Source: Acidobacteriota bacterium (lineage in GTDB: Bacteria; Acidobacteriota; UBA4820; DSQY01). From it: DNA of 61,167 nt. Under the pieces are notes generated by a model. That model saw only the letters and a program-made list of their open reading frames with translations, ran no database searches and had not been told where the DNA came from. Of this stretch, positions 11,180-54,110 are shown one piece after another; position 1 is the first letter of the stretch, and every line of letters starts with the position of its first letter. The translations under genes were made by a program, and so were the position numbers. The DNA is taken from the NCBI GenBank assembly GCA_021813555.1, contig JAKAKG010000120.1, positions 1-61,167 on the forward strand, written 5' to 3'.

Positions 11180-11557
11180 ATGGGGCGTGGAGCAGGAGAG
11201 CCCGTGCGAGTGCTGGTGGTGGACGACAACGCCCTCATCCGCAAAATGATCCGCGCCGTCCTCGACGAGGAGGGGGTGGAATGCCACGAGGCTACCGACG
11301 TGGCCTCGGCGCTCTCCGCCCTGAGGGACGTGAAGCCCGACCTCTGCTTTCTGGACCAGTACATGCCTGACGGCGAGGGTTTCTCCGTGCTGAAAGCATT
11401 GCAGGCTTGGCCCCCGGGCCCCCGCCCCCGCGTCTATCTCCTGACGGGCAGCGCCGACGAACACATCGCCTTCCAAGCCCGCGAGTTGGGAGCGACGGGT
11501 GTCCTGTTCAAGCCCGTGGATCCTAACCTCCTCATCCAGAAGGTACGAGAGCGCTGA
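11180..11557 (+). CDS. Single-domain response regulator (CheY-like)
   Basis: VLVVDD, FLDQYMPD (phosphoacceptor Asp), LLTG, LFKP. Confidence 0.9.
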   Translation: MGRGAGEPVRVLVVDDNALIRKMIRAVLDEEGVECHEATDVASALSALRDVKPDLCFLDQYMPDGEGFSVLKALQAWPPGPRPRVYLLTGSADEHIAFQARELGATGVLFKPVDPNLLIQKVRER

Positions 11558-11558
11558 C

Positions 11559-13634: not shown

Positions 13635-13746
13635 GCGAAGACGCTCACCACGAAGGCACCAAGACGCCAAGAAACATTTCTTGAAAGAAACACATCCATC
13701 AAGAACGCTCCTTCATCCCTGTGATACCGTAAGAGGAGGAGGGCCC

Positions 13747-14937
13747 ATGCGCTTTCTGGCTACGGCGTCCAAAGGACTCGAAGAGGTGGTGGCGGGCGAA
13801 CTTCGGGCGCTGGGGCTCTCCGTTCTCGACGTGGCCCCCGGCCTGGTGGCATTCAAGGGCCGGATGGAAGACGGTTGGCGGGCGTGCTTGTGGCTCCGGG
13901 CGGGCCGGAGAGTCCTCCTCCCCCTCGGTTCCTTCGAGGCCCCGGACGCCGATGCCCTCTACGAGGGGGCGAAGGCGTTGCCGTGGGACGAGTTTCTCGC
14001 GGCGGACCGGACCTTCGCCGTGGAGGCGGCGGTCCGCGATTCGGCCTTCAACCACTCGGGCTACGTGGCCCTCCGCGTGAAGGACGCCATCGCCGACGCC
14101 CTGCGCGAGCGGCGCGGCGCCCGCCCCGACGTGGACCGGAGGGATCCGGACGTGCGCATCGTGGTCCACATCGCCCGCACCCGCGCAGACGTCAGCCTTG
14201 ACTGCTCGGGCGGCCCCCTGCACAAGCGGGGCTACCGCATCAAGCCCGTGGCCGCCGCCCTCAACGAGACCCTCGCGGCGGGTATTCTTCTGCTGGGCGG
14301 CTACGATGGCACCGTCCCCATGGCCGACCCCTTCTGCGGCTCAGGAACCCTCTGCATCGAAGCGGCCCTTATGGCCACGAGAACGGCCCCGGGCCTCCTC
14401 CGGGCCGAACCCTTCGGCTTCGAGCGCTGGCCCGCCTTCGAGCCCCAAGCCTGGCGCGCCATCTTCAAGGAGGCCGAAGGCGCTCTGCGCGATGCCCCGG
14501 CTCCCATCCTTGGCAGTGACGTGGACGGCTCCGCCGTGGCGGCGGCTTCGGCCAACGCGGAGCGTGCGGGAATGGACCGGTGGATCCGCCTCAAACGACG
14601 GGACGCCCGCGATTTCTCGGCTCCCGCCGGCCCCGCCGGCCTCATCGCCGCCAATCCGCCCTACGGCGACCATGCGGGGGCCGGCGAGGACCTCGCCGGG
14701 CTGTACAGCGCCTTCGGCGACGCCCTCAAACGGCGCTGCCCCGGCTGGAGGGCCCTTCTCCTCACGGGCGACGGGACTCTCGCCAAAGCCATCGGCCTCC
14801 GTCCCAAGCGAAAAATTCCCCTCTTCAACGGCCCCATGCCCGTCAAACTCCTGGAGTTTGAGATGTACGAGGGCACGCGAAGAGGATCGGGCGGAGGAGC
14901 GGGCGAGGCCGTGGAGCGAGACGCGAGGCCGGAATGA
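13747..14937 (+). CDS. THUMP-domain class I SAM-dependent RNA methyltransferase (RlmL-like)
   Basis: ATASKGLEEVV, LHKRGYR, LNETLAAG, DPFCGSGT, ANPPYG; GAGGAGG RBS. Confidence 0.9.
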   Translation: MRFLATASKGLEEVVAGELRALGLSVLDVAPGLVAFKGRMEDGWRACLWLRAGRRVLLPLGSFEAPDADALYEGAKALPWDEFLAADRTFAVEAAVRDSAFNHSGYVALRVKDAIADALRERRGARPDVDRRDPDVRIVVHIARTRADVSLDCSGGPLHKRGYRIKPVAAALNETLAAGILLLGGYDGTVPMADPFCGSGTLCIEAALMATRTAPGLLRAEPFGFERWPAFEPQAWRAIFKEAEGALRDAPAPILGSDVDGSAVAAASANAERAGMDRWIRLKRRDARDFSAPAGPAGLIAANPPYGDHAGAGEDLAGLYSAFGDALKRRCPGWRALLLTGDGTLAKAIGLRPKRKIPLFNGPMPVKLLEFEMYEGTRRGSGGGAGEAVERDARPE

Positions 14938-39219: not shown

Positions 39220-39317
39220 CCCCAAGGTGACACTTTATGGTACTTTCGCGGTGCCGCTGGGCGGCGCAAGGCCTTGCCCAAATCGGCCTATCCCTTTAAA
39301 ACCGAAGAGTTGTGCCG

Positions 39318-39333
39318 TGGCACCAAGGTTGCA
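39318..39333 (+). promoter_or_regulatory. Sigma54 (-24/-12) promoter of the pilin gene
   Basis: TGGCAC-CAAGG-TTGCA, exact consensus spacing. Confidence 0.75.
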
Positions 39334-39360
39334 TCGCTTTCCTTCCTTGGAGGGAGAACG

Positions 39361-39864
39361 GTGAGCAAAATGAAGGAAGAGAAGGGGTTCACCCTCATTG
39401 AGCTCCTCATCGTCGTCGCCATCATCGGCATCATCGCGGCCATCGCCATTCCCAACATGATCTCGGCCATCCAAAAGGCGAAGCAAAAGCGCGCCATGGG
39501 AGAGATCCGGGGCATGGGCACGGCGTGCAACTCCTACGCGACAGACACCAGTCATTTTCCTCTCGCCACCACCACCTACGCCGCCACGGACACGATTCCG
39601 GACATGGTTGAGCTGGCGCCCTACTACTTGAAGTCGGTGCCCAACCCCGATCCATGGAATGCCAAATATCAGTATGCGTCCACCTCGACGGGCACGGACT
39701 TCGCCGTGGCCTCGCTGGGCATGCTAAGCACGGCAGACACTCCTGATTTTACCTCGGTGCTCACGGTGAGCCCCCGGCCCACGAGCTGCTTCGAGAACGA
39801 CATCGTCTGGGTGAACGGCGCCTTCACGTACTATCCCGACGGAAAACAGAGCCGCTGCCAGTAG
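39361..39864 (+). CDS. Type IV pilin / GspG-like prepilin
   Basis: KG|FTLIELLIVVAIIGIIAAIAIP class III signal; C-terminal Cys residues. Confidence 0.9.
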   Translation: MSKMKEEKGFTLIELLIVVAIIGIIAAIAIPNMISAIQKAKQKRAMGEIRGMGTACNSYATDTSHFPLATTTYAATDTIPDMVELAPYYLKSVPNPDPWNAKYQYASTSTGTDFAVASLGMLSTADTPDFTSVLTVSPRPTSCFENDIVWVNGAFTYYPDGKQSRCQ

Positions 39865-39922: not shown

Positions 39923-40150
39923 CGAAGAGGACAAGGGGCGCGTGGTTACTGTGCTGCCGTTTCCCGCCTCCGGCCGTTCAATTTCCACTTCCCAGGTCTC
40001 CGCACTTTCTTTCTTGACAATCCGGTGCCCCCTCCGCTATGGTTAAAATGCCAATACGCGCCACGTCGCGCGAAGTACGCGGAGGGGGAGGAGACGGTGG
40101 GGGGTGCCGTCCGAGCAAGACGAGAAGCCTCAGGCTCCTTGGGCATCGCC

Positions 40151-40588
40151 ATGGACGGGGTCCAGGTGTGCTCTTGGCCCTCAATCTTTGCGCCCCTGCG
40201 CACCGATGTCCTGAGCCAGGCTCCCTGGCCTTGTACAGTTACCCAGGCTTCGAGCCTTCTGAACTGGCTCTCCCGGGTTTTTCCACAGCGTCCCCTTCTT
40301 GCCATCACGCACCGTCCCCTTTCGGAGGATGATGGCGTGCCCGTGAGGGGGATCTCGGCCCTCGGCTCCGGGGTGGCCCTTGCCTCCTCGTGGCGCTTGG
40401 GAGACGAAGCGTTCCTTGGCGTGGCGCGCCATGAGGTGGCGCATGCCTTGGGGCTGGGGCATTGTGGCCGATGGGACTGCGCCCTGAGCGAGCGTCCCCA
40501 TCCCATGTCATTGGCGGACCGGCCCAATGAGTTATGTCCGGGCTGCATGGACCTTTGGGACGGGTTGTGCCGGGGGCTGGCGCCATGA
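40151..40588 (+). CDS. Archaemetzincin-like (M54) zinc metalloprotease; start uncertain (40025 or 40151)
   Basis: HEVAHALGLGHC, C-A-L-S, C-terminal CPGC. Confidence 0.75.
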   Translation: MDGVQVCSWPSIFAPLRTDVLSQAPWPCTVTQASSLLNWLSRVFPQRPLLAITHRPLSEDDGVPVRGISALGSGVALASSWRLGDEAFLGVARHEVAHALGLGHCGRWDCALSERPHPMSLADRPNELCPGCMDLWDGLCRGLAP

Positions 40589-42120
40589 GCGTTCGCACCG
40601 CAGCCCTGGCCGTCGTGCTCTCCTTTGCTTCCCTGTGCGTGGCGGCGGCGCCTGGGCCCCGCCCCGAACTGGACAGCGGTGCCTGCCTCTCCTGCCATGT
40701 CTCCCAGCTTGCCACGTTGCCGGCCCAACCGTGCATTTCCTGCCATTCGGGCAACATGGACTTCCTCCAGCGCCACGACGACCGTGGCGCGGACGCCTCC
40801 CTCTGGGTCATGGGAGCCGCGGGAGGAGGGTCCCTCGCTCTTCTCGGTCTCATTGGACTGGCGCGATTCAGAAGGTTGGCGCCGGCCTTGGCCGCGGCGG
40901 CCCTCTCGGCCCTCGCCGCCCCCGCCTTAAACGAGCATTCATCCATGCCGGCCCTCCCTGGATGGGTAACTTTGGCCGAAGGCTTCGCCTGCGACCTAGC
41001 CCCGGCCTTCTCTCCGGACGGGCAGGGCCTCCTTTTCGCCAGGCGCGGTCCCGATACCAATGGTGACGGGATGGTGGACCTGCGCGACGGCCAGGCGCTG
41101 TTCCTGCTCCGGCGCGATTGGGCCGCCCCGAAGCGGCTCACGCCCTACGTTCTTTACGCCGAGCCTGCCCTCGCCGTATGGTCCGCTGCGGGGGACCTGC
41201 TCGCCGTGCCTCTCCCGGCCAGGGGGTCCGAAGGCCCATCCATAGCCCTCTTCAGTTCAGAGGGCCGGCGGCTCTCGGCCCTTCCGTGCGAGGAACCGGC
41301 CATGGGCCTCTCCTTCTCACCTGACGGGCAAGCGCTGGCTTTCGCGGAAGGGAAGGGCATCGGCGCGTGGACCCTGGCTGACGGCGCCCGCACTTGGGCC
41401 TTGACACCCCTTGAGGGCGGCTCCTTCCCCCGTCTTGCCGGGTGGAACCCCTTCGGCGGCAGTCCTCTCTTTACGCGAGGATATGACTACTCCCGAATGG
41501 GCCGCACGCGGGACGGCCGGTATCACCTTCCGGACGAAGTTCTCCTGGAGACGGCTCAAAAGGGCACGAGCCGGCCTTTGACTTCGCCGCGTTCCGCGGC
41601 CCTGCGCCGCTACAAGGCGCAGCCGGTGGCGGGGGCCCTGTTCTACCTGGCCCAGAGCCGCGGCGGCCTCCCCGGCCTCTACCGGTTTGACGGCATGGAG
41701 GAGGCTCTCTGGTCGCGTGAGGATCAGGCGGTTCAAGGATTCTTGGCTGATGGTTCCGAGGCCTGCTGGGCGTGGGTCTCTTCCGGGGAAGGCGGCGCCC
41801 GGCTCCTTCGCTTCGAGGGTCCAGGACGCTTCCATGAAGCGGGCCCGGTCTTCCAGGCCAGCCTCCTGACTATGGCGGAGGACGGCGCCGGAGGCCTCTG
41901 GTGCTCGGGGGCCCCCATGGGGGGAGGCCTTCGGCGGCTCTTGTACGTGGATGAGCGGGGCCGGGTCTCGGTCCCCTTTGAGAACTGCGGCCAGGTGTTC
42001 GGCCTTGCCGCGCGGGCCGGGTCCGTGGCCTTTGTCACCGTTTCCAGGGACACGGACGGCGATGGCGGAATCACGCCCATGGACAGGGGGGAGCTTCGGG
42101 TACGGTGGGCCGCGCCATGA
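40585..42120 (+). CDS. Secreted/membrane protein: two CxxCH motifs, TM segment(s), TolB-like beta-propeller
   Basis: Signal peptide; CLSCH and CISCH; FSPDGQ repeats; DTNGDG and DTDGDG motifs. Confidence 0.7.
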   Translation: MSVRTAALAVVLSFASLCVAAAPGPRPELDSGACLSCHVSQLATLPAQPCISCHSGNMDFLQRHDDRGADASLWVMGAAGGGSLALLGLIGLARFRRLAPALAAAALSALAAPALNEHSSMPALPGWVTLAEGFACDLAPAFSPDGQGLLFARRGPDTNGDGMVDLRDGQALFLLRRDWAAPKRLTPYVLYAEPALAVWSAAGDLLAVPLPARGSEGPSIALFSSEGRRLSALPCEEPAMGLSFSPDGQALAFAEGKGIGAWTLADGARTWALTPLEGGSFPRLAGWNPFGGSPLFTRGYDYSRMGRTRDGRYHLPDEVLLETAQKGTSRPLTSPRSAALRRYKAQPVAGALFYLAQSRGGLPGLYRFDGMEEALWSREDQAVQGFLADGSEACWAWVSSGEGGARLLRFEGPGRFHEAGPVFQASLLTMAEDGAGGLWCSGAPMGGGLRRLLYVDERGRVSVPFENCGQVFGLAARAGSVAFVTVSRDTDGDGGITPMDRGELRVRWAAP

Positions 42121-45100
42121 GCAACCAGCCTCCGAAGGGAAAGCCCCCGGGAAATCGGGTTGCGGCCCCGCCTCGGCCCGCCTCCCACGCTGCCGTGCTC
42201 CGCCAGGGCCAAGCACCTCTCCGGCCAGGACAGGCGGGCCCCGCCGCCGCCAAGAAGGGGCCGGGGTGTCTCGGCTCTCTCTTCCTGGAGCTCACGGGCA
42301 TCGGCTTCCTGCTCCAGATCAAGCGCAAGCTGGGAGGCCTGGGCTTCTTTCTCGCCCTCGCGGGTGTGCTCTTCTTCTGTTTCATCCTCGGGGCGAGGAT
42401 CGAACGCTACGGTCACCTGGGCGAGCATCAGTACATCCTCCAGCTCCTGCCCATGGCCTCGTGCCTGTCGCCCATCCTGGCCTGGTTGATGTCCCTGGCC
42501 TTCGCCGTGGGAGACGTGCTGACCAACGCCACCTACTGGCTCTTCCCGCAGGATTCCAACCTCAACATGTATCATCTCTTCACCAAGGCCCACCCCCTGC
42601 TCACCTGGGGCGCCTACGCCCGGATGGATTTCTTTACCCTGCCGCTGTATGCGCTGTTGCCTGGTCTGGGGTCGAGGATCCTGTACGCCGTGGCTTCGCG
42701 AGCCTTCCACGCGGGGCGGGCCAAACTCATGAAGGACGGTGGCACGGGGGACACGGAAGCCCTCAAACGGCAGTTGAATCAAGCGCTGTCTGACCAAACG
42801 TCCTGTGCCCAGCGGGAGCGGGCCGTCTCGGACCAGTTCAATGGAGCCGATGCGGCCGCCGAGCGGGCCGGTGACCGGATACGGTCGGCGGAGGCTGGAG
42901 AACGTGAGGCGTCCTCGGCGGTGCAAGAGCAAAATGCTCAGACCCAGGAGCAAAACCTGCTGGCCGCCCGGGCTCGCGAGGAGGCGGGCCAGGCCCAGGC
43001 CCGTGCGTCAGCCGCCGGCCAGGAGGCATCGCGGTTCGAAGGGGAGCGAGACCGCGCCGGCGAGGCCCTTCGCCAGGGCAGCCTCCAGGAGGAGAACCTG
43101 AAGGGCCGCCTGGGCGATCTGGGCCGGAAGCGTGAAGAGGCGGATAACCTGGTGAAAGAGTGCCAGGGCAACCTGGAGGCCCTCGCCCGCGACCGGAAGG
43201 CCATGCAGGCGGCCATGGACACGGGCGTGGATCAAGACGGCAGACCCATGACTCCCGAGCGGATGGCCGCCGCCAAGAGAGCGTTGGATCAAAACCTCAT
43301 GGCCGAAGGGCGAGAGAGGGCCCGCTTGGACTCGGCGAGGGACCACCAGCGCGAACTCGCGGCTGAATCGGATCAAGCAAGGCGGGACCTGGAAAATCAG
43401 CAGAAGGCCAACGCCGAAGAGCTGGCGCGATTTCGGCAGGACGAGGCCCGGGCCGCCCAGGCGCGCCGGCGCCAGGAGCAAGCTCAGGAAGAACTCCGCG
43501 CCAAGGAAGCCGCAGAGGATGAGGCGAGGCGAGCGGCGGCCGAGTCCCAGCGCCGGGCACAGGAGGACATGGCGAGGCTGGAGGCCCTTCGCCAGGAGAA
43601 GGCCGCGGCCCTCCGCGATTTTCAATCTGCGGCCGCGCGGCGCAATGCCCTGGCGGATCAGCTCAAGGAAGCGCGAAGCGGCCTTGCGGCGGCCAACGGC
43701 AAAGTGTCTCAGATTCAATCAGCCCTTGGCCTGAGCGCCACGCCTCCCGTGGCGCCGGCGGATCCTTCCGCGGGGCATCACCGGCACCATCCCGATCCGA
43801 ACCAGGAGGTCATCCGCCAGTACGATCAGGCCATGGGCGCGGCCCAGGCCGAGCAGCGCCGCATGCGGGACATGATGGTGCGGCAGTGGCAGGCGGAGAA
43901 CCGCGGCCTCCTCCCTTCGGGCCTCGTGGGCGGCGAGGTGGCGGGAGTGGGCAGTCTCACCAGCCAAGGCTTCGGCCCCCTCGCCGCGGCCGCCGTTGGC
44001 GCCGCCGCGGGTTCGGCCCTGGGCGGGATGGCCCTCCACGGCCACATGTGGGCCGAGTACAACCCCATCCGCCAAATCGTCCACCCCTCGCACTCGGCTG
44101 ACGTGGGCTGCTACAGGATGGACGTGGGCTACCTGGACGGCAACATTCTGTCGGGCGTGGGTTCGGGCACGTCCGTCGCCCCCATAGCCGTGGTGGGGGC
44201 CGAGATGGGCGGCGTGCCTTCCGCGCCGCCGCCGGCGGGTCCCGGTACGGGCCTGCTTCCCCCGGGGCCCGAATCGCCCGGCGGCTGGGCCGCCCCGTCT
44301 CCCGGCGGCGGTATCCCAAGCGAAACGTCCGACGAGCAGGCAGCGCGGGACGCCGCCCGGAAAGCCCGCGACGAGGCGGACCGGTACAAGAAGCAGTGGG
44401 AGGAGTCGGAGGCCTCCGCCGACAAAAACGATCCCGGGTACAAAGACCTCAAGAAGCAGTACGACGACTACATTACGTCCAAAGAGGACGAAGCCGCCGC
44501 GGCCCAGGCTCGGGCCGACGCCAGCCAAAGCCAGCGGCAGGCCGATGAGGCCGCGGCCCAGGCCGCCAAGGACGCCAAAGATGAATGGATTCGCAACCGC
44601 CAGGACGACCTGAAGGCGGCGGCGGAGGAGAAGGCTCACCTCGAAGCGGTCATGGCGGGCGCGGCGGGCGCGGGGCTCAGCACCGCCGACCAGCAAACAA
44701 GGCTCAACCAGCTCAACCAGCGGTTGAGCGATCTCCACGGCCAGCTTCAGAAGGAGGGCGGCGATATCGACTACTCCGCCCGAGACCGAGGTGTCATCGG
44801 CCCCGGCAAGGAATTCCTGGAAGCCCCCGAGAAGGCGCGCCAGGAGGCGGCCAAGCTGGACTACCTCCAAAAGATGCAGAAGGCCGCCTGGGACCACGAC
44901 ATGGTCGATCCCGAGTCGGGCGGCAAGAAGGGCGACATGTACGGGCGGGTGGGGAACGCCATCAACGACTTCCTCGCCGGCAAGAAGCTCGACCCGGACA
45001 TGATCAAGCAGATGCGGGACAGCATCGGGCACCGCATCGACGGCACGACGGCGGACACCTCCCAGCTTCCGGGGCCCGAGAAGCCGTGGTGGCAGGACGG

Positions 45101-46763
45101 CGATTCCATGAGAAAGGCCGTCGCCGAGACGGGCCGCAACATCTCCACCTGCCAGACGAGCGACGGCAAGGTGTCCTGGTCGGGCCTCGCGGGCCGCGTG
45201 GGCATCGGCATCCTGACGGGCGGGACCTCGGAGTGGGTCTTCACCCCGGCGGGGGCGTTGCAGACCACCAAGGACGCGGTGGACCGCGGCGCCGACGGCC
45301 TTGAGGCGACTTACGAGGGCATCAAGGAGACGATCAAGCAGGAGCTCGGCGGAGCCCTCATCGGTGGCGCCCTCAAGACGGGGGCCGCCGGGTTCAAGGG
45401 GATGGCCCAGGCGGAGCTGGCCGGGGAGAACATCCTCAAGGGTGGCGCCAAGGGTGCCTGGGGCGGGCTCAAGGAAGTGGGCAAGGAGGGGGTCAAGGGC
45501 CTCACGGACGTGGTGAGCGCCCAGGCCTGGAAGGACACGGCGAAGGGGTTGACGGGCTCTCTCGGGAGCGGCCTCAAGCGCACGGGGGAGATCCTCACGG
45601 GCGAGGAGGGCCTCACCCTCGGCAAGGGCGCGGGGGAGGGGGCGGAGGCCGCGGCCAACGCGGGGCGCAAGCTACCGCCCTTCGGCTCCCCCGAGGCAGG
45701 CAAGCTGAACCAGCTCCAGGACGCCATCAAGAGCGGCGACCCGGACAAGGTGGCGGGCCTCTACCGCGAGGGCGGCATGAAGGACCTCTCGGACCTCCAG
45801 AAGGCGGGCTACATCAAGCCCGAGGACGCCCAGAAGCTGAACCAGCTCCTCCAGAACCAGGTGAACGGTGCGGTCAGCGACGGCACCAAGGCTGCCGTGA
45901 ACCAGTTCCCCGGCCAGACGGGGGTCCGCGTGAAGGAGGTCCTGGTGGGCGACAGCGGGTCCTCCGCCTCGGGTCCCCCTACGCGCCTCAAGACCGATGC
46001 GGATCGCACCCTCATTCCCACCTTCGACGAGGGCGACCTGCAGCGATACGCCCAGAAGAACGCCATGAGCCGCGACCAGGCCTACGACGAGCTCAGCCAA
46101 AAGTTCCGAGACTCGCACGAGGCCAACGTCTCCAAGGAGCTCCAGGACCGGGGCTTCGGGGACACGGGCAGCGGCAACCCCCAGAAGGCCGCCGACAACG
46201 TGGGATACGGGTCCTACGACCGCATCGGCGGCGGCTCGGGCAAGGCCGATTCCTACGCGGAGGGGTTCACCAACTCGCGTCAGGCCGCCCAGGGGAAAGG
46301 GACGAGCTACACCACGGACGCGGATGGCAACGTCTCTGGAAGCCACCAGGTCTCGGGCCAGTCGGTGGTGGACCAGAACCAGCTCAACCGGCAGAACTAC
46401 GGGGGCGAGGACATCGGGGGCCGGGAGCCCACGTCCATCCCCCCGAGCGAGGTCCCATCGGTCATGAACCAGCAGGCAAACGCCCTGGAGAAGCACGGCG
46501 ACGACCCGCTCTACGTGGCCAAGGCCGTGGGCCGGAGCGAGAAGATCGCCAACACCGTGGGCGAGTCCCTCGGCGACCAGCGCCTAACCCAGGCGGCCAA
46601 GGAAATCTACAGCGATCCCGGCAAGATGAACGATGTCCTGAAAAAATACGGTTACGTGGACGCCCACGGCAACCCCGACCCGTCGGCCTTCTGCTCCCAG
46701 GGTAAAGGCAGCGTCAACGGGTACGCCAACTCCTTCGATTCGGTCACGCCCGATACGCCTTAG
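42117..46763 (+). CDS. Giant hypothetical protein (1548 aa): TM region, long coiled coil, Gly/Pro linkers, C-terminal globular domain
   Basis: Uninterrupted ORF; start overlaps the upstream stop (ATGA). Confidence 0.85.
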   Translation: MSNQPPKGKPPGNRVAAPPRPASHAAVLRQGQAPLRPGQAGPAAAKKGPGCLGSLFLELTGIGFLLQIKRKLGGLGFFLALAGVLFFCFILGARIERYGHLGEHQYILQLLPMASCLSPILAWLMSLAFAVGDVLTNATYWLFPQDSNLNMYHLFTKAHPLLTWGAYARMDFFTLPLYALLPGLGSRILYAVASRAFHAGRAKLMKDGGTGDTEALKRQLNQALSDQTSCAQRERAVSDQFNGADAAAERAGDRIRSAEAGEREASSAVQEQNAQTQEQNLLAARAREEAGQAQARASAAGQEASRFEGERDRAGEALRQGSLQEENLKGRLGDLGRKREEADNLVKECQGNLEALARDRKAMQAAMDTGVDQDGRPMTPERMAAAKRALDQNLMAEGRERARLDSARDHQRELAAESDQARRDLENQQKANAEELARFRQDEARAAQARRRQEQAQEELRAKEAAEDEARRAAAESQRRAQEDMARLEALRQEKAAALRDFQSAAARRNALADQLKEARSGLAAANGKVSQIQSALGLSATPPVAPADPSAGHHRHHPDPNQEVIRQYDQAMGAAQAEQRRMRDMMVRQWQAENRGLLPSGLVGGEVAGVGSLTSQGFGPLAAAAVGAAAGSALGGMALHGHMWAEYNPIRQIVHPSHSADVGCYRMDVGYLDGNILSGVGSGTSVAPIAVVGAEMGGVPSAPPPAGPGTGLLPPGPESPGGWAAPSPGGGIPSETSDEQAARDAARKARDEADRYKKQWEESEASADKNDPGYKDLKKQYDDYITSKEDEAAAAQARADASQSQRQADEAAAQAAKDAKDEWIRNRQDDLKAAAEEKAHLEAVMAGAAGAGLSTADQQTRLNQLNQRLSDLHGQLQKEGGDIDYSARDRGVIGPGKEFLEAPEKARQEAAKLDYLQKMQKAAWDHDMVDPESGGKKGDMYGRVGNAINDFLAGKKLDPDMIKQMRDSIGHRIDGTTADTSQLPGPEKPWWQDGDSMRKAVAETGRNISTCQTSDGKVSWSGLAGRVGIGILTGGTSEWVFTPAGALQTTKDAVDRGADGLEATYEGIKETIKQELGGALIGGALKTGAAGFKGMAQAELAGENILKGGAKGAWGGLKEVGKEGVKGLTDVVSAQAWKDTAKGLTGSLGSGLKRTGEILTGEEGLTLGKGAGEGAEAAANAGRKLPPFGSPEAGKLNQLQDAIKSGDPDKVAGLYREGGMKDLSDLQKAGYIKPEDAQKLNQLLQNQVNGAVSDGTKAAVNQFPGQTGVRVKEVLVGDSGSSASGPPTRLKTDADRTLIPTFDEGDLQRYAQKNAMSRDQAYDELSQKFRDSHEANVSKELQDRGFGDTGSGNPQKAADNVGYGSYDRIGGGSGKADSYAEGFTNSRQAAQGKGTSYTTDADGNVSGSHQVSGQSVVDQNQLNRQNYGGEDIGGREPTSIPPSEVPSVMNQQANALEKHGDDPLYVAKAVGRSEKIANTVGESLGDQRLTQAAKEIYSDPGKMNDVLKKYGYVDAHGNPDPSAFCSQGKGSVNGYANSFDSVTPDTP

Positions 46764-46772
46764 AGGTGAGGC

Positions 46773-48098
46773 ATGCTCGTCGAACAAGGTGAGTGGATTC
46801 TGAACGAGGGAGAAATGGCTGCCGTGGCGGCCAGTTTCGGGATAGTGTCCTCGCCTCTCGGCGTGATCCCGAAGGCCCTTCCGCCGAAGGCCCTTGCGGA
46901 GGAGGCCGTCAAGGTTTTCCAAGACCTCGACCCATCGTTCAAGGGCCTCGCGGAGCGGTGCCTGAGGGCCCTCGCTGCGCCCGACAAGCTCGTGCACGTC
47001 CACAACGTCGTGGCCGACCAGCGGGTGAGCCGCGCCCTCATGGTTTTCTCTCCGGTCATGGGTGGGGCGTGGGTTTCCCTGGCCCGCTCGGGGGAGCTGC
47101 GCCGGGTGAGCCTCCGCTCCGAGGCCGAGCTCCGCTTCCTCGTGGCCGACGCCCTCGCCGCCGACGCGAGCCTCCGCCCCGACCGCGTGAGCGTGAACCT
47201 CTCCACCCCTGAAGCCCTCGTCCTCCTGGCCGTGTTCGAACAGCTGAGGCGGGCGAGGCTCATCTCCCTCCTGGACCACAAGGAGCCCGTGACCCTCTTC
47301 GCCGCTGAGGACGTGGAAGCGAGATTGAAGGAGGCGGACGTGGAGGACTTCCGCTGGACCCTCCCCTTCCTCGCCAAGCTCCTGCCCCTTCCCATGGGCG
47401 ACCTGGCCGTGACGAAAGATTGCCGCCCCGCCCTCATGGCCCTGGAGAAGGCGGGGCTCCTGGAGCGCCTGGGCATCCAAAACGATAGGATGGTGTGCGA
47501 GCTCACCAACCCCGGGGCCTTCCTCGAGGCGGGCTTCCGCGACTCCAGCGCGAGGGCGGCCCTCTCCGTGACGGCCCCCGTGCGCGGCGGGCTGGCCCAC
47601 GACGTCCTCCTCCTCGTGCGGTCCGCCTTCGACCTGTTCCTGGTGTCCTTGAGCGGAGGCGACGCGGCCCTTTCCACGATCCTCGCCGGCGACCTGGACG
47701 AGACCATGAAGCTCGTCTTTGCCCCCCCGCCCGCCCTTCCCGCGGAGGTACCCGAGCAGGGCGCGGAGGCCACGGTCATCCTGGACGGCCCCACCATGAA
47801 TCTCGCGCGCCTGGTGGTGGACGCGGGGCCCCTGGCGGGAACGGCCTGCGCCCTCGTGGACGGGCTAGGGCTCGGACGCCAGGCGGACAACGGCATGGTC
47901 ATCAACGATCCGGGCATCTCCCGGCACCACGCCAGGTTCCGCCGCGATCCGGCGGGGGTGTGGTCCGTGGAGGACCTGGGGAGCAGCAACGGCACCTTCG
48001 TGAACGAGGTCAGGATTACCGCGCCCATGGCCCTCCAAGACGGAGACCACATCAGGGTCAGCAACACCGTCATGACCTTCAATCCGCGCGAAGCCTGA
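46773..48098 (+). CDS. Hypothetical protein with a C-terminal FHA domain
   Basis: LGRQADN, ISRHHA, DLGSSNGTFVN; GAGG RBS. Confidence 0.88.
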   Translation: MLVEQGEWILNEGEMAAVAASFGIVSSPLGVIPKALPPKALAEEAVKVFQDLDPSFKGLAERCLRALAAPDKLVHVHNVVADQRVSRALMVFSPVMGGAWVSLARSGELRRVSLRSEAELRFLVADALAADASLRPDRVSVNLSTPEALVLLAVFEQLRRARLISLLDHKEPVTLFAAEDVEARLKEADVEDFRWTLPFLAKLLPLPMGDLAVTKDCRPALMALEKAGLLERLGIQNDRMVCELTNPGAFLEAGFRDSSARAALSVTAPVRGGLAHDVLLLVRSAFDLFLVSLSGGDAALSTILAGDLDETMKLVFAPPPALPAEVPEQGAEATVILDGPTMNLARLVVDAGPLAGTACALVDGLGLGRQADNGMVINDPGISRHHARFRRDPAGVWSVEDLGSSNGTFVNEVRITAPMALQDGDHIRVSNTVMTFNPREA

Positions 48099-48115
48099 GG
48101 CGAAGGGAGGCGGCG

Positions 48116-48676
48116 ATGGCCGAGTTTTGGAAAGACGGCTGGCAGGAGGACGCCTTCGGCAGGCTCCGGGGTTTCATCCAGTCGTCTCCCGCGTGGTACG
48201 AGAACCTCTCTCCGTCGGACGTGGCGGAAGACGCCTATCTCCTGGGCGTGGCCTCGACCCTCTTCCTGCGCGACGAGGACGCGGGGGCCAAGGCTTCGCC
48301 CGCTCCCTCCGCCGTCGCGCGAGAGGCCATGAAGCTCGCGCCCCTGGGCGTCCCCCCGTTCACCTATGAGCGCTCTCTTGTGGCCGGAGGCGACGCGTCG
48401 GCCTCCTACGCGGGATCGGCACAAGGCCGCTTCGGCGCGCTGCACGGGGAGGCCGCGCGGCGTGCCGGGTCTCAGGACCGTTGGGCCGCGGGCCTCGACG
48501 CCCTGCGGCGCGCGGGGGCCCTGCGCGCCCAGTGGCCCGAGGAGGAGCCTCTTCATGCGCCCCCCGTGGCCACCTTCGGAGAGGATATGCGCGCCTGCAC
48601 CCACGTCGTTCTTCGCAGGGCCGTGCACGCCTTTAAGATCGGATTTGGCCTCTGGGGCCGGTGGGAGTCTCCATGA
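48116..48676 (+). CDS. Hypothetical protein (186 aa)
   Basis: GGAGG RBS; coupled to the next gene. Confidence 0.7.
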   Translation: MAEFWKDGWQEDAFGRLRGFIQSSPAWYENLSPSDVAEDAYLLGVASTLFLRDEDAGAKASPAPSAVAREAMKLAPLGVPPFTYERSLVAGGDASASYAGSAQGRFGALHGEAARRAGSQDRWAAGLDALRRAGALRAQWPEEEPLHAPPVATFGEDMRACTHVVLRRAVHAFKIGFGLWGRWESP

Positions 48677-49095
48677 TCGAGACACGCCTGAGCCTGGGCG
48701 AGGCCCGCTATCTCCTCCAGGTTCTGGACCTGAAGCTCGCTCCCGAATCTCCCTTGGCGGATCCCCTTGGAGGGGCCGCCGAGGTTCCCGCGGGCAGCAC
48801 GGCCGAGGCCGGTGTGGCCAAGAGTCTCACGTCCCGGGGGCTACTCCTGAGCGACGGCGCGCCCAATCCCTTTGCGGCCGCGGCCATGGTGTGGCTGGCC
48901 CAGCCGGAGAAGGCGTGGACCCTCTCCCTTTTCGGACGCGGGGGCGCCGCCATGGTGCACCTGGCGTTCAAAGGAGGTTCGGCGGTGGAGTGCCGCCGCG
49001 ACGCGGAAGGCTTTCTCCTTCGCTATCCCCTCCCGGAGGCCGAGGCCGAAGGGTGGCTCCGCCTCCATGTGGACGGAGGACGCCATGGTTCTTGA
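48673..49095 (+). CDS. Hypothetical protein (140 aa), EspG-like pattern
   Basis: LSLGEARYLL...LTSRGLL...WLAQPE; ATGA overlap. Confidence 0.7.
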   Translation: MIETRLSLGEARYLLQVLDLKLAPESPLADPLGGAAEVPAGSTAEAGVAKSLTSRGLLLSDGAPNPFAAAAMVWLAQPEKAWTLSLFGRGGAAMVHLAFKGGSAVECRRDAEGFLLRYPLPEAEAEGWLRLHVDGGRHGS

Positions 49096-50200
49096 CGCGG
49101 CCTTCGCGCCCCAGGCCAACTTGGGCCTCAAGATTCTCTCTTTCTTCACCACGGGCGCCTTCTTTCTGATCACCCTCTTCCTCAAGCTCTGCTATTCCAC
49201 GGCCCTCTACGCCACCCTGGCGGAGATCTCCCGGCGCATCGCCCTTTTCAGGCAGACGAGGCGGCCGGCTCTGAGGGCCCTCCTCCTCCTGCCCGCGGTA
49301 GTCGTCTTCTGCACCGCCATCCTGTTCGCCCTCAACCTCTGGCGGGTGGTGTTCGGATCCCTTGATCTCAAGGGCTTCACGCAGGCCTTCAACCCCATGG
49401 ACATCATCTGGGTCTTTCTGCGAGGGGGCTTCTTCTTGGGGGCGGTTGCTCTGGGGGCGGTTCTGGGCCTCATGGTGGCCAACCACGTCACCCTGGGCCG
49501 GGACCGGTTCGGAGGCGTCCTTTATAAGAACCGGGGCCGTTACCTCGCCTTCTGGTTCGCGGCCTTCTCCGTGTGCGGCTTGTTCCGTCTGTTGCCTTGG
49601 GGCTTCGTGACCTACTGGACGGTCTGGGTCGTGGTCCTTGCCGCGTGCCTGGTGACGGCGGCCCACTGGTCCATCTACGGCAAGGTCAGGAGCGTTGCCG
49701 CGGCGACAGCGCCGGGCCTTCCAGCGGGAGGGGAGATCGCCTTCACCCTCGCGGCCCGCGAGGCGGTGGCCCTCTCAGCGCTCCTGCGCGGCCGGGCTCC
49801 CAGGGACGCGGAGGCCCTGGCCCGCTCGCTCGCCGACCCCGATCCCTCATGGCTCGCTCACCCCGCCTGGACCGCCGAGTTGAGGGTGCTGGTCCAAGAC
49901 CCCTCGGCCCTCGGCGCCGCCCTCGAAGGATTGTCCGTCAAAGGGCTCGCCGCGAAGAATGGGAAGGGATGGAGCCCCGCTGGCCCCGCCGCGCGTTTGC
50001 GCCTCATGGGCTTCGCCGAGACGGCGGCCGGTCTCACCGTGCGGAAGGCAGGGGCTGCCCGCACGGTAGTCCTCCACCTGCAAGGCCCCTCGGCCCTGCT
50101 CCTGGAGCCCGGTCCCGCCACCCTCGGCGTCCGAGAGTTTCCCCGCGGCGCCGATGCAGTTGCGGCGCTGGTCGGTGCCGCGGAGGGGCGTGCAGGGTAG
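49085..50200 (+). CDS. Membrane protein (about 5-6 TM) with a soluble C-terminal domain
   Basis: GGAGG RBS; hydrophobic N-half; C-half resembles the second unit of the 46773 protein. Confidence 0.75.
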   Translation: MVLDAAFAPQANLGLKILSFFTTGAFFLITLFLKLCYSTALYATLAEISRRIALFRQTRRPALRALLLLPAVVVFCTAILFALNLWRVVFGSLDLKGFTQAFNPMDIIWVFLRGGFFLGAVALGAVLGLMVANHVTLGRDRFGGVLYKNRGRYLAFWFAAFSVCGLFRLLPWGFVTYWTVWVVVLAACLVTAAHWSIYGKVRSVAAATAPGLPAGGEIAFTLAAREAVALSALLRGRAPRDAEALARSLADPDPSWLAHPAWTAELRVLVQDPSALGAALEGLSVKGLAAKNGKGWSPAGPAARLRLMGFAETAAGLTVRKAGAARTVVLHLQGPSALLLEPGPATLGVREFPRGADAVAALVGAAEGRAG

Positions 50201-50313: not shown

Positions 50314-51807
50314 CTAGAACCCGTAAATCTCCCCGAACTTGGCGTTGAGATACTCCAAAGCGGAATCGGCCGACAGGGGCTCGCCGGTCACTTTGGCGCA
50401 GAGGTCCTGGGGAAGGTACCGGCGGCCGTGGACGTGGATGTTGGCGTTAAGCCAGGCCTTCACGTCCCCCAGCTTTCCCGCGGCCACCCGCTCGTCGAGA
50501 TCGGGCATGTCGCGCCTCATGGCGCGGGCGAACTGGGCCGAGTAGAGATTGCCCAGGGCGTAGGTGGGGAAGTAGCCGATGAGCCCCACGCTCCAGTGGA
50601 CGTCCTGCAAGACGCCTTCCCGGTCGTCCGGTGGCACGATGCCGAGGAAGGAGCGCATCTTTTCGTTCCATGCGGCAGGGAGGTCCGCCGCCTCCAGCTT
50701 GCCCGCCAACAGGGCGCTCTCCAGCTCGAAGCGGAGGATGATGTGGAGGTTGTAGGTGACCTCGTCGGCCTCCACGCGGATGAGGGAGGGCTCCACCACG
50801 TTCACGGCGCCGTAAAACTCCTCCTCGGCCACCCCGTCCAGGACCCCCGGGAACGCGGCCTTGAGTTGCGGGAAATACCGCCGCCAGAAGGGCCGGGACC
50901 GGCCGATCATGTTCTCCCAGAACCGCGATTGGGACTCGTGGATGCCGAGGGAGCAGTACTGGCCCGCCGGATCCCGGTAGCGTTCCGGGTCGAGCCCCTG
51001 CTCGTAGAGGGCGTGGCCCGCCTCGTGCATGGTGCCGAAGAGGGCCATGTTCAGGAAGGTCTCCTGGTAGCGCGTGGTGATGCGCACGTCCCTGAAGGTG
51101 CCGTTGGTGAAGGGGTGGGCCGACACGTCCATGCGTCCCGCTTCCGTGTCGAACCCCATGTCCGCCATGACGCGGCGGCTGAAGGCTTCCTGGGCGGCCA
51201 GGGAATAGGGGCGCTTCACGAGGTCCTGGGAGGGCCTTCGCCGGGCGCCCTTGATCTTGTCCAGGAGGGGCACGAGACGGTCGCGAAGGTCCGAGAACGT
51301 GGCCGTGAGGGCCCCTTCGGTCATGCCCGGTTCGTATTCATCCAGGAGGGCGTCGTAGGGGTTCTGGTCACCTCCGATGGCCCGGGCCATCTCCCGCACG
51401 ATGTTGAGCACGGCCTCCAGGTGGGGCCTGAAGGCCGCGAAGTCGTTGTTCTTTTTGCCCTCTTCCCAGGCCACCTGGGCAAGGGCGCAGACTTGGGCCC
51501 GCTCGGCCACGAGGCGGGCCGGGACTTTCACGGCCCGGTCGCGGGCACGCTTGGCCTCGCGGACGTCGGCGGCCAGGCCGATGCCCAGGTCCTGCCTCGC
51601 GGCGAGCTCTTCGATGAGGCCGCCCAGCCCGGGCTCCGTCACCTTCTCGTGGATGGCCGTGGCCAGGGCCGCCTGGTGGTTGCCCCGCTGATCCACGCCT
51701 TTGCGCGGCATCATGACCTGCATGTCCCACTCCAGGAGCTGTTGCACCTCCTGGAGGTCGTGGATGGCACGGCACTTTTCGTAAAACTGCTCACTCGTGT
51801 TCGGCAT
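50314..51807 (-). CDS. Carboxypeptidase, family M32 (Taq-like)
   Basis: HPF, MHEAGH, IHESQS, IRVEADE, LQDVHW. Confidence 0.96.
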   Translation of the reverse strand: MPNTSEQFYEKCRAIHDLQEVQQLLEWDMQVMMPRKGVDQRGNHQAALATAIHEKVTEPGLGGLIEELAARQDLGIGLAADVREAKRARDRAVKVPARLVAERAQVCALAQVAWEEGKKNNDFAAFRPHLEAVLNIVREMARAIGGDQNPYDALLDEYEPGMTEGALTATFSDLRDRLVPLLDKIKGARRRPSQDLVKRPYSLAAQEAFSRRVMADMGFDTEAGRMDVSAHPFTNGTFRDVRITTRYQETFLNMALFGTMHEAGHALYEQGLDPERYRDPAGQYCSLGIHESQSRFWENMIGRSRPFWRRYFPQLKAAFPGVLDGVAEEEFYGAVNVVEPSLIRVEADEVTYNLHIILRFELESALLAGKLEAADLPAAWNEKMRSFLGIVPPDDREGVLQDVHWSVGLIGYFPTYALGNLYSAQFARAMRRDMPDLDERVAAGKLGDVKAWLNANIHVHGRRYLPQDLCAKVTGEPLSADSALEYLNAKFGEIYGF

Positions 51808-51920
51808 GGCTCCCTCCCGTCGTACGCTGGCTGGCCGCTTGCTGCTCAAGAAAAAGTATAGCAGAGGGCGGGGGCATGAAGGGTTACAATACCCCCTGGC
51901 CACCTTTGGAGGAGCAAGCC

Positions 51921-54110
51921 ATGAGAAGATCCCTGACCTTCGCCGTTCTCGCCGCCGCCCTCCTGGTTTCGGCGGCGTCCGCCGCATCGCCGCGCAAGGA
52001 CCTCACCGTGGCCGAGGCCTTGCGCCCCGGTGCCTTCGGCGGGGGCCAGCCCCGGGAGGTGACGTGGGCGCCCGACTCCAAGGCCTTTTACTATCTGGAG
52101 CCGGGAGCGAAGGGCAAGGCGGGGGACCTCATGGCCTGCGATCCCGCAACCTTGGCTAAGACGCCCGTCCTAACCCAGACGGCCTTTCGGGAGGCCTTCG
52201 CCCAACTTGCGAACCTCAAAGGCGAGGAGGCGGCCCAGGCGGCGTTTCGCTCCTACCGCATCTCGCCCAAGGGCTCCTATCTTCTCCTAGAAACCTCCGG
52301 CGGACCGTGCCTCTGGAACCTTGCGACCCGAACCCTGAAACGCCTGGCCACGGAGGAGGAGGGGGCGGAGACGGTGGCCTTCTCGCCCGACGAGACCCGG
52401 GTGGCTTTCACGGCGAGGGGAAATCTCTACGCCGAGCATCTGGCCGACGGAGCGAGGACGACCCTCGCTGAAGGCAAGGCTCCTTTCATCACCTGCGGCG
52501 CCGTGGACTGGCTCTACGGCGAAGAGCTCGACATGGACCGGGCCTTGTGGTGGAGCCCCGACGGCACCAAGGTGGCGTTCCTGCGCTTCGACGAGACGGG
52601 GGTCTACCAAGATCCCATGGTGGACGAGAGCGTGAACCATCCGGAAGTGAAGCCCCAGTTCTACCCCAGGCCCGGCGACGTCCTGCCTCGCGTGAGCCTC
52701 CACTGGGTGCAGGCCGAGGGCGGCCCCGTCCACGACGTGGCGGGAGCCGTGTCGGGCGGAGGGTACCTTCCCAGGGCCCTCTGGCTCCCGAGAGGAACGG
52801 GCCTCCTCTACGCCCTCTACAACCGCGCCCAGGACCGCCTCGTCCTCTACCAGGCGGGACTGGAGGCGGGCGAGCCCCGCAAGGTTCTGGAAGAGGCGTG
52901 GCCCACTTGGGTGAACGTCCCTCCCGATCCGATGTTCCTCAAAGACGGCCGGTTCCTCTGGCTCAGCGAGCGCGACGGCACCAGCCACATCTACCTGTGC
53001 AGCCTCGACGGAAAGCCGCCCCTCCAGCTCACCAGAGGCCCGTGGGTGGTGGACGCCATCCTCGGCGTGGACGAGGCTCAGGGGCGGGTGGTGTTCAGCT
53101 GCGGCCGAGACGGCGCCACGGGGTGCCAGATCTACCGGACGGACCTCAAGGGCGAGAAGGAGACCCGCCTCTCGGATGGCCGCGGATGGCACGCGGCTAC
53201 CTGCTCTCCCGATGCGAGCTGGTACCTGGACAGCGCCTCCTCCGCGGCGGTCCCCGATGTCCTATCCCTGGTCTCGCTGAAAGACGGCAAGGCCCGGGTG
53301 GTGGCGCCCAACCCCGCTCCCGAACTGGAGGAGTACGGGTTCGTCCGCCCCGAGTTCATGACCATCACCACTCCCGACGGCACTGCCTTGAACGCGTGGG
53401 TCATCAAGCCCAGGGACTTCGATCCCGCCAAGAAATACCCGGTCATCGCCGAAGTCTACGGCGGCCCCCACGCCCAGATCGTGCAGGACCGTTGGAACGG
53501 CCGCTGGATCCCCATCGGCCAGCTCTTCGCGCAGAACGGGTTCGTGTGCTTCGCCGTGGACAACCGAGGCTCGGCCCGCCGCGGTAAGGCTTTTGAGGAT
53601 GTGCTTTTCAAGCGCCTGGGCAAGGCCGAACTGGCGGACCAGCTCGCGGGCCTGGAGGCCCTCAAGAAGCTGCCCTACGTGGACGGGTCCAGAATCGGCC
53701 TCTGGGGCTGGAGCTACGGCGGATTCATGACGACCTACGCGCTCACCCATGCGGGTGCCTACGCGTGCGGCTTCGCCGTGGCTCCCGTGACGGACTGGCT
53801 CAATTACGACGCCTGCTACACGGAGCGCTACCTCAAGCTGCCCAAGGACAATCCCGAAGGGTACAAGGACAGCTCGCCGGTGAATGGCGCGAGCGGCCTT
53901 CACGTGCCCTACTACCTGGCCCAGGGCCTCATGGACAACAACGTCCACTTCGAGAACAGCGCCCGCATGGCGGACGCCCTCTACAAGGCTGAAAAGCCGT
54001 TCCTGATGGCCTACTACCCGCGCATGGACCACGGCATCGCGGGCAAGGAAGCGCGGCGCGATCTGTTCACCCGGATGCTCGAGTTCTTTAAGGCCAACTT
54101 GAAGCCTTAA
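51921..54110 (+). CDS. S9 family dipeptidyl peptidase IV
   Basis: Signal peptide, propeller, DWLYGEE, VYGGP, GWSYGG, DNNVH, catalytic His in DHGI. Confidence 0.95.
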   Translation: MRRSLTFAVLAAALLVSAASAASPRKDLTVAEALRPGAFGGGQPREVTWAPDSKAFYYLEPGAKGKAGDLMACDPATLAKTPVLTQTAFREAFAQLANLKGEEAAQAAFRSYRISPKGSYLLLETSGGPCLWNLATRTLKRLATEEEGAETVAFSPDETRVAFTARGNLYAEHLADGARTTLAEGKAPFITCGAVDWLYGEELDMDRALWWSPDGTKVAFLRFDETGVYQDPMVDESVNHPEVKPQFYPRPGDVLPRVSLHWVQAEGGPVHDVAGAVSGGGYLPRALWLPRGTGLLYALYNRAQDRLVLYQAGLEAGEPRKVLEEAWPTWVNVPPDPMFLKDGRFLWLSERDGTSHIYLCSLDGKPPLQLTRGPWVVDAILGVDEAQGRVVFSCGRDGATGCQIYRTDLKGEKETRLSDGRGWHAATCSPDASWYLDSASSAAVPDVLSLVSLKDGKARVVAPNPAPELEEYGFVRPEFMTITTPDGTALNAWVIKPRDFDPAKKYPVIAEVYGGPHAQIVQDRWNGRWIPIGQLFAQNGFVCFAVDNRGSARRGKAFEDVLFKRLGKAELADQLAGLEALKKLPYVDGSRIGLWGWSYGGFMTTYALTHAGAYACGFAVAPVTDWLNYDACYTERYLKLPKDNPEGYKDSSPVNGASGLHVPYYLAQGLMDNNVHFENSARMADALYKAEKPFLMAYYPRMDHGIAGKEARRDLFTRMLEFFKANLKP

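Follow-up and report, generated by a model that had tools for sequence, protein, structure and literature searches.

We have analyzed a stretch of 61,167 nucleotides (the window in what follows) from the metagenome-assembled genome (MAG) of an Acidobacteriota bacterium and found an operon of six genes, called here P, A, B, C, D and E in their order on the plus strand, that encodes two paralogous modules with the fold of EspG. One module is complete in protein B and the other is split over proteins D and E. EspG and its relatives sort substrates to type VII secretion systems (T7SS) in mycobacteria and staphylococci; the substrates of EspG are helical bundles (an LXG-type toxin, or the PPE member of a PE-PPE pair), which it binds at the tip and which depend on it for secretion. 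The four units that make up the two modules are two N-type and two C-type halves of this fold, and not four equal copies of one unit. We are confident that all four are EspG half-domains, and about evenly divided on whether they act as chaperones or adaptors of A, the giant protein encoded just upstream of B. For the combined statement, that EspG half-domain units act as chaperones or adaptors of A, we estimate a probability of about 0.6. The parts of B, D and E are located as follows (aa, amino acids).

46773–48098, plus strand: gene B, 441 aa, EspG fold at aa 1–320 and then an FHA domain
46773–47168, plus strand: B aa 1–132, N-type EspG half (AlphaFold2 model, Foldseek, hhalign)
47169–47738, plus strand: B aa 133–322, C-type EspG half (AlphaFold2 model, Foldseek, hhalign)
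47739–47804, plus strand: B aa 323–344, proline-rich flexible linker (predicted local distance difference test score, pLDDT, <50 for aa 324–343)
47805–48098, plus strand: B aa 345–441, FHA domain (PF00498, Foldseek, conserved residues)
48673–49095, plus strand: gene D, 140 aa, stand-alone N-type EspG half (PF14011, hhalign)
49085–50200, plus strand: gene E, 371 aa, hydrophobic N-terminal region and C-type EspG half
49085–49717, plus strand: E aa 1–211, putative membrane anchor with about five hydrophobic segments (Kyte-Doolittle)
49718–50200, plus strand: E aa 212–371, C-type EspG half (AlphaFold2 model, Foldseek, hhalign)

A complete EspG fold in protein B and half of one in protein E

The AlphaFold2 model of B (m4202ba985219, from 27 homologues) had a mean pLDDT of 86.7. 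The blocks of aa 1–132 scored mostly 87–93, with a beta-beta-alpha element, a later alpha-alpha pair, a four-stranded meander and a further helix, and aa 133–322 combined a winged-helix-like LEKAGLL-hairpin element with another four-stranded meander. When the model was compared with the PDB by Foldseek, the best match of aa 1–320 was EspG5 (4w4l_C, E=5.1e-9), followed by about 17 further chains of EspG1, EspG3 and EspG5 with E-values up to 1e-6 over 319–358 aligned columns and TM scores, normalised to the target, of 0.36–0.62. The 50 best matches listed for B were EspG and FHA entries only, the latter falling on aa 345–441, with no regulators among them. Since the matches span the whole of EspG, B contains one whole EspG fold and not two copies of something smaller.

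The C-terminal domain of E was modelled separately (m9e3b9072700e, aa 212–371, 20 homologues; pLDDT 92.4, predicted TM score 0.86). Seven of its nine best PDB matches were EspG3 or EspG1, with E-values from 5e-3 to 0.25 and query-normalised TM scores of 0.43–0.59; six of these seven spanned 151–158 columns at TM 0.53–0.59. Judged from this model, the domain is about half an EspG. The comparison with EspG structures that had been proposed together with the first reading of this DNA, made from the letters alone (the sequence-only reading), was therefore favorable for both proteins. A whole EspG fold in a single protein is found in B only, while D and E aa 212–371 supply one half each.

Two types of half-domain

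The sequence-only reading had noticed similar motifs in three proteins of the operon and took them for one unit in four copies. Every motif it quoted is present in the gene to which it was assigned: LNEGEMAAV (aa 10–18), LRALAAPD (aa 64–71), LSTPEALVLL (aa 143–152) and LEKAGLL (aa 224–230) in B, LSLGEARYLL (aa 6–15), LTSRGLL (aa 52–58) and WLAQPE (aa 74–79) in D, and LAAREAVAL (aa 222–230) and LSVKGL (aa 283–288) in E. Motif residues are among the best conserved positions of each family alignment (E14, L67, P70, T145, L149, L152, A227 and G228 in B; L6, A11, R12, L52, G56, L75, A76 and P78 in D; L222, A227, L230, L280, L283 and L288 in E). In the AlphaFold2 models of B and of the E domain the motifs occupy equivalent places, the first at the junction of beta1 and alpha1, LxxxGL at the end of the helix preceding the beta-hairpin, and LAxP at the end of the helix preceding the four-stranded meander.

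We compared the units all against all with hhalign (B aa 1–132, B aa 133–320, D and E aa 212–371, with C, the membrane region of E and the FHA domain as controls), using family alignments of 16–36 sequences with at least 33–59% identity to the window protein. With these narrow profiles no pair of units was significant (P 0.011–0.38) and the controls fell in a similar range; the best pair was D with the E domain (0.011), followed by the B N-half with D (0.078) and the two halves of B (0.098), while the unrelated control C gave 0.17–0.30. Because the repeat is undetectable with narrow alignments, the motif pattern has to be considered a lead and not a proof. A profile of B aa 1–322 was then searched against 1.84 billion representative proteins and retrieved 184 relatives at E≤1e-3, 130 of them at E≤1e-10. 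With a B profile from a diverse alignment of 106 sequences the same comparison became informative. D aligned with the N-half of B (aa 7–131) over 121 collinear columns (P=5.4e-5, probability 66%) and the E domain with the C-half of B (aa 134–314) over 150 columns (P=3.8e-6, probability 87%). The cross pairs were much weaker (D with the B C-half 0.038, the E domain with the B N-half 0.28, the two halves of B with each other 0.027), reversed decoys gave P≥0.068, and the lowest values among 20 column-shuffled decoys were 0.031 for D and 0.11 for the E domain. Four related units are thus present, as had been proposed, but they fall into two types, and the pair found in B is the two halves of one EspG fold. 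EspG's N- and C-terminal subdomains are themselves related by a quasi-twofold axis, with about 10% identity, as the product of an internal duplication (bioRxiv 10.1101/250803).

The typing agrees with Pfam, which places D on the N-terminal half of EspG. D itself matches PF14011 with 25.6 bits (E=1.1e-5, profile positions 31–107 of 245), just under the gathering score of 27 bits, and nine of ten D homologues score 27.1–32.1 bits at positions 3/32–111. Overall 13 of the 16 D-family members match the family; the homologue from locus L005 (related loci are designated by numbers) does not. The likeness to the N-terminal pattern of EspG, which the sequence-only reading had pointed out, is borne out here. 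Against PDB sequences the D profile found EspG3 only at E of about 0.6, amid noise such as the TcpA pilin and lectins.

As D pairs with the N-half of B and the tail of E with its C-half, D and E together look like a split, membrane-anchored paralogue of the B module. The two genes are neighbours whose reading frames overlap, the N-half coming before the C-half; the stop of D (49095) lies 11 nt beyond the ATG of E (49085), which is preceded by GGAGGA. We also considered that D and E could be one gene broken by a sequencing frameshift. All 15 D homologues are 139–140 aa long with conserved ends, so the split is real and not an artefact, and the starts of the E homologues are consistent as well.

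The FHA domain of B and the anchor of E

Each module carries an additional element. The C-terminal FHA domain of B matches PF00498 with 72 bits (cut-off 20.7, E=5.5e-20) and the FHA structures of GarA, OdhI and DgcB with Foldseek TM scores of 0.82–0.92. Over 27 sequences the phosphothreonine-binding residues G368, R369, R384 and G407 are invariant and S383, H386 and N406 nearly so, giving the Gly-Arg, Ser-Arg-x-His and Asn-Gly pattern of a genuine FHA domain; the proposed link of one copy to a phosphothreonine-reading domain is in this way confirmed. In E, the C-type half follows hydrophobic, probably membrane-spanning segments (aa 13–43, 60–93, 105–138 and 169–198 by Kyte-Doolittle), as had also been proposed, and hydropathy together with the positive-inside rule would put the EspG half on the cytoplasmic side. 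B and D have no signal peptide on reading of their sequences.

The C-terminal domain of B appears exchangeable across its family, in which the length of the linker varies too. Among 106 members we found a zinc ribbon in 70, FHA in nine and GYF_2 in seven; one of them (P0043) is the equivalent of B aa 1–313 followed by a zinc ribbon. In distant members the EspG-like module is followed by one to three zinc ribbons, with no FHA (L009 10001–11359, L010 10001–11590, L011 8001–9260), or has neither a zinc ribbon nor FHA (L012 2668–3750). The neighbourhood of L010 includes an RHS/YD-repeat protein and a DUF8367 gene, and L011 adjoins gas-vesicle genes.

FHA domains couple assembly to Ser/Thr phosphorylation in the type III (T3SS), type VI (T6SS) and type VIIb (T7SSb) secretion machines, and B shares its canonical FHA with assembly or adaptor proteins such as the cytoplasmic domain of YscD/PrgH in T3SS, Fha1/TagH in T6SS, the N-terminal FHA of EssC in T7SSb and the mycobacterial FhaA and FhaB/FipA. 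Unlike in those proteins, FHA is in the wider B family a minority alternative to the zinc ribbon (9 versus 70 of 106), and we know of no FHA assembly or adaptor protein in which the domain is joined to an EspG fold.

The giant protein A as a probable partner

The rest of the operon comprises the genes upstream of B and the gene between B and D.

40534–42120, plus strand: gene P, 528 aa, PD40-type beta-propeller repeats and two CxxCH motifs, upstream member of the operon
42105–46763, plus strand: gene A, 1552 aa, with hydrophobic segments in the N-terminal part, a long coiled coil and a C-terminal domain that is conserved (about aa 755/906–1540)
48104–48676, plus strand: gene C, 190 aa, member of an accessory module with D and E, not an EspG-like unit

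All six genes lie on one strand, with short gaps or overlapping boundaries between them; the end of P overlaps the start of A (42105–42120) and the stop of C and the start of D share an ATGA. In all six contexts sampled (L005, L007, L009, L010, L011 and L012) an A-like gene was found directly upstream of the B-family gene, over B identities to the window copy of 46% (L005 and also L006), 41% (L007), 35% (L012), 32% (L011), 31% (L009) and 27% (L010). The large upstream genes share the C-terminal domain of A at 26–56% identity. Their N-terminal part is variable, and in L007 it is a different hydrophobic N-terminus of several segments, without the N-terminal coiled-coil region of the window protein. 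In L005 and L007 a propeller gene stands ahead of the giant gene. C, D and E join A and B in the closer Acidobacteriota loci alone; from L007 outwards they are missing. This conserved pair indicates that A is probably the client or partner of the EspG-like proteins; the B-family gene has as its neighbour a gene for a large and probably helical partner protein, much as espG lies beside pe/ppe genes.

A itself has hydrophobic segments at aa 74–139 and 626–644 and, apart from an SMC-like coiled-coil signal, no match in Pfam, NCBIfam, PDB sequences or PADLOC. Its C-terminal domain contains two motifs, GDSGSSA.G....KTDADRT...FD (window 45948–46037, aa 1282–1311) and G.GSG..DSY..GFTN.RQ..QG (window 46227–46256, aa 1375–1384), both without variation in four homologues as distant as 32% identity. 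The first resembles the G-S...D-x-D signature of Pol-beta-type nucleotidyltransferases; neither Pfam nor PDB sequences gave a match.

From the fold and the gene neighbourhood, and by analogy with the known chaperones, we infer for the EspG-like units a function as chaperones or adaptors. EspG and EsaE bind large clients through a helical part, maintaining them in soluble form and targeting them (PMC11217815). B and the D-E pair might likewise grip a helical segment of their large partner, keep it competent for assembly and deliver or tether it. B would act, in soluble form, on the conserved C-terminal domain of A as its adaptor or chaperone. D would dock on the C-terminal domain of E, so that an EspG-like body with two lobes is rebuilt at the inner membrane (on its cytoplasmic face if our reading of the topology is right), and this membrane-fixed body would hold or receive A, with B as its soluble counterpart. 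The C-terminal domain of B could act as an interchangeable module, FHA in this clade and zinc ribbon or GYF in relatives, for docking onto another component, and the FHA domain could couple the complex to a phosphothreonine mark. The pairing of D with E, their binding to A, the cytoplasmic location and the chaperone activity are thus suggested by the fold, the topology prediction and the order of the genes.

The same arrangement could be read in another way, with the EspG-like modules as structural subunits of an envelope machine built around A and P, for motility, adhesion or the cell envelope, and not as transient chaperones; FHA would then provide regulated assembly, as in YscD of T3SS or in the gliding protein GltG. 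The fixed order of propeller, giant coiled-coil membrane protein and EspG-FHA protein, the permanent attachment of one EspG half to a hydrophobic anchor region, and the fact that the FHA of B also matches the Yop-YscD_cpl and GltG models are all in line with this. However, no known machine shares these parts, and A, C and E are without a match in PADLOC, NCBIfam and Pfam. We consider a structural role of this kind unlikely, although sequence data cannot tell it from the chaperone or adaptor explanation.

A possible use of the EspG fold outside type VII secretion

The host phylum Acidobacteriota is diderm and, to our knowledge, the EspG fold has been described so far only within T7SS loci of Gram-positive phyla. 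The near-identical loci belong to Acidobacteriota MAGs, as does the window (64–70% G+C), so the proposal of a family outside Actinobacteria stands. We scanned about 26 larger frames of the window and the called genes of eight related loci (L005–L012) with Pfam and found no FtsK/SpoIIIE ATPase of the EccC/EssC type and no other T7SS core family, with several mid-sized frames and all those of WXG100 size lying outside the scan. The siting in a T7SS gene cluster that is typical of EspG was thus not seen in what was scanned. As no T7SS ATPase gene was found among the frames tested, the EspG fold is apparently used here outside type VII secretion.

EspG-fold chaperones were already known beyond Actinobacteria, in Bacillota, where EsaE, TscG and TshG have been described (PMC11217815). 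New here are the phylum, which is diderm, the domain architectures and the fact that the frames tested include no T7SS ATPase gene; in a limited search of the literature we came across no EspG-fold proteins from Acidobacteriota or any other diderm, and none that are split in halves or carry FHA or zinc ribbons as fusion partners. With EspG itself (PF14011, the PE-PPE chaperone of the actinobacterial ESX systems or T7SSa) the operon shares the quasi-twofold fold of two alpha/beta halves, in B and in the C-terminal domain of E; most D homologues also reach the gathering score of the family, on its N-terminal half, while the D of the window falls just short of it. It differs from EspG systems in the host, in having no PE/PPE client and no ESX core genes among the frames tested, in the C-terminal FHA of B (zinc ribbon or GYF in relatives), and in the second module, whose N-half is a separate protein of 140 aa and whose C-half is linked to an anchor. 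Like B and the E domain, EsaE/TsbG, TscG and TshG of T7SSb and newer variants in Bacillota have the EspG fold at almost no sequence identity, a fold that came to light through structure prediction alone; their substrates are large toxins such as EsaD (PMC11217815). Their clusters carry EssC-type ATPases and WXG100/LXG substrates and their hosts are monoderm; none of those genes was found here, small frames of WXG100 size being unscreened. No FHA, zinc-ribbon or membrane-anchored variants of them are described in that study (PMC11217815).

It could still be that these are genuine T7SS chaperones, and that a divergent T7SS with an EccC/EssC-type ATPase and WXG100-like substrates, encoded elsewhere in these genomes, receives A or another substrate targeted by B and D-E. 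EspG-fold proteins have until now been described as components of T7SS (PMC11217815). FHA is typical of the EssC of T7SSb, the FHA-containing ESX-1 regulator EspM of NCBIfam is a weak match to B, the RHS/YD-repeat protein near L010 belongs to a class linked with T7SS in Bacillota, and only 61 kb of the genome are visible. Nevertheless, the scanned window frames and the called genes of the eight loci include no FtsK/SpoIIIE ATPase, EssB-like pseudokinase or ubiquitin-like YukD, the espG of known systems is part of the T7SS cluster, the hosts here belong to a diderm phylum, and A has N-terminal hydrophobic segments and not a helical-hairpin secretion domain. This makes a role in a hidden T7SS distinctly unlikely.

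The winged-helix resemblance

The sequence-only reading had named a winged helix as the kind of fold that would speak against EspG. EspG gave the better and fuller match, yet the part around the LxxxGLL-hairpin does look winged-helix-like. This helix-hairpin-helix element resembles the recognition helix and wing of MarR, IclR and GntR/HutC regulators, and on our own reading the LEKAGLLERLG...ELTNPG segment of B follows the same order. Among 20 homologues of the E domain, four had sub-threshold matches to MarR_2 (PF12802, best E=6.6e-4) and four to TrmB, with single weak matches to Rrf2, HTH_20, IclR and Penicillinase_R; the E domain of the window had no winged-helix match in Pfam. PhnF, TtgV, IclR, Fur and PH0730 appear among the lower Foldseek matches of the domain, ranked below EspG. 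The units could then be ligand- or DNA-binding regulator domains of MarR, IclR or GntR type with a small alpha/beta sensor, sharing with EspG only a supersecondary arrangement, and the operon proteins would be regulators or anti-sigma-like factors and not chaperones; fusions to zinc ribbons and FHA occur in regulators as well. But all the winged-helix matches are below the Pfam cut-offs, and their Foldseek TM scores are 0.2–0.35, mostly at low probability, compared with 0.55–0.59 at probability 0.98–1.0 for EspG. The overall match of these regulators is far poorer, none is among the 50 best matches listed for B, and D matches the EspG family of Pfam and no helix-turn-helix family. A hydrophobic region, probably embedded in the membrane, is attached to one of the copies, the context is one of protein partners, and such tight coupling to a giant structural gene would be unusual for a repressor. 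We read the winged-helix likeness as a resemblance of substructure that leaves the EspG assignment in place, and regard regulators as an improbable explanation. A defence system, which a giant protein with an FHA neighbour brings to mind, found no match in PADLOC.

Returning to EspG half-domains that serve A, several points weigh against this interpretation. Regarding the fold, PF14011 gave no match to the B N-terminal and E C-terminal families even at E≤5, the Foldseek E-values of the E half are only 5e-3 to 0.25 with a high root-mean-square deviation (5–9 Å), and D is assigned to a half-domain by sequence profiles and not by a structure model. The hhalign probabilities are 66% and 87%, with none above 95%, and the FHA control reached P=1e-3 over 53 columns of the B N-half, for which reason we take about 1e-3 as the noise floor of the method. 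Regarding the function, it is the order of the genes alone that connects B and D-E with A. A has a hydrophobic N-terminus and no recognisable PE/PPE, LXG or WXG100 domain, and is therefore unlike the known clients of EspG. The split module is dispensable, given that neither C nor D and E accompany A and B in L007 and the loci further away. The operon contains no Ser/Thr kinase to write a ligand for the FHA domain. Finally, a T7SS could lie elsewhere in the genome, of which only 61 kb were seen, with small WXG100-type frames unscreened.

Other genes in and around the operon

Gene C lies within the B to E stretch, yet it is not one of the four units. As a candidate fifth unit it gave hhalign values of P=0.08–0.30 against them and was discarded. 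It always occurs together with D and E, as in L001–L006, and is absent from L007. The C-terminus of the protein is strongly conserved (HAFKIGFGLWGRWESP), and its N-terminal part carries the motif WQEDAF; no relatives were detected outside the operon family, nor any match in Pfam, NCBIfam, PADLOC or PDB sequences.

The propeller protein P matches PF07676 (PD40, E=1.3e-6) and has two CxxCH haem-binding motifs, CLSCH at aa 51–55 and CISCH at aa 67–71 (window 40684–40746), conserved in the L005 homologue. The combination of a dihaem with a propeller is unusual, and P is probably periplasmic. Just upstream of P, at 40025–40588 on the plus strand, there is an open reading frame that contains HEVAHALGLGHC, which is a zinc-metallopeptidase motif (HExxHxxGxxH) of the archaemetzincin type. 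L005 has this small gene too (HEMAHALGLPHC, 3328–3807), again ahead of its propeller gene, and hence the frame may be the first gene of the operon. Further upstream (39274–39864, plus strand) is a protein like type IV pilins or pseudopilins, with an N-terminal KGFTLIELLIVVAIIGIIAAIAIP motif. After E, the minus strand carries an open reading frame that reads as an M32 carboxypeptidase-like protein (50314–51987). In L005, the locus with 46% identity in B, an extra gene of 225 aa follows E on the same strand (13455–14132) and has no counterpart in the window. Far from the operon, at 11499–13634 on the plus strand, there is a protein of 711 aa in which the histidine-kinase domains HisKA and HATPase_c are joined to an Arf/Ras-like small GTPase domain at the N-terminus (PF00025, E=2.5e-7).

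Meaning of a split EspG in a diderm phylum

Tentatively, and with less than even confidence, we can take the finding further. The EspG fold would have a life outside T7SS, in about 180 clusters of adaptors in which it is combined with a zinc ribbon, FHA or GYF and which serve a giant membrane protein with a possibly enzymatic C-terminal domain, in diderm Acidobacteriota and other uncultured lineages. In one clade it would have been duplicated as a naturally split EspG with one half anchored in the membrane. If true, we would have before us a new system of assembly or of chaperone and client, and also a living intermediate on the way from a single half-domain to the two-lobed EspG chaperone. 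The natural pair of split halves would offer a route to the origin of the quasi-twofold chaperone and to the way in which its halves cooperate in binding a client. The about 180 clusters of hypothetical proteins would gain a testable role, as adaptors of their giant neighbour, and the strongly conserved, uncharacterised C-terminal domain of A is a target for structural work. The finding also raises the question of whether these bacteria have an unrecognised export or assembly pathway regulated by phosphothreonine.

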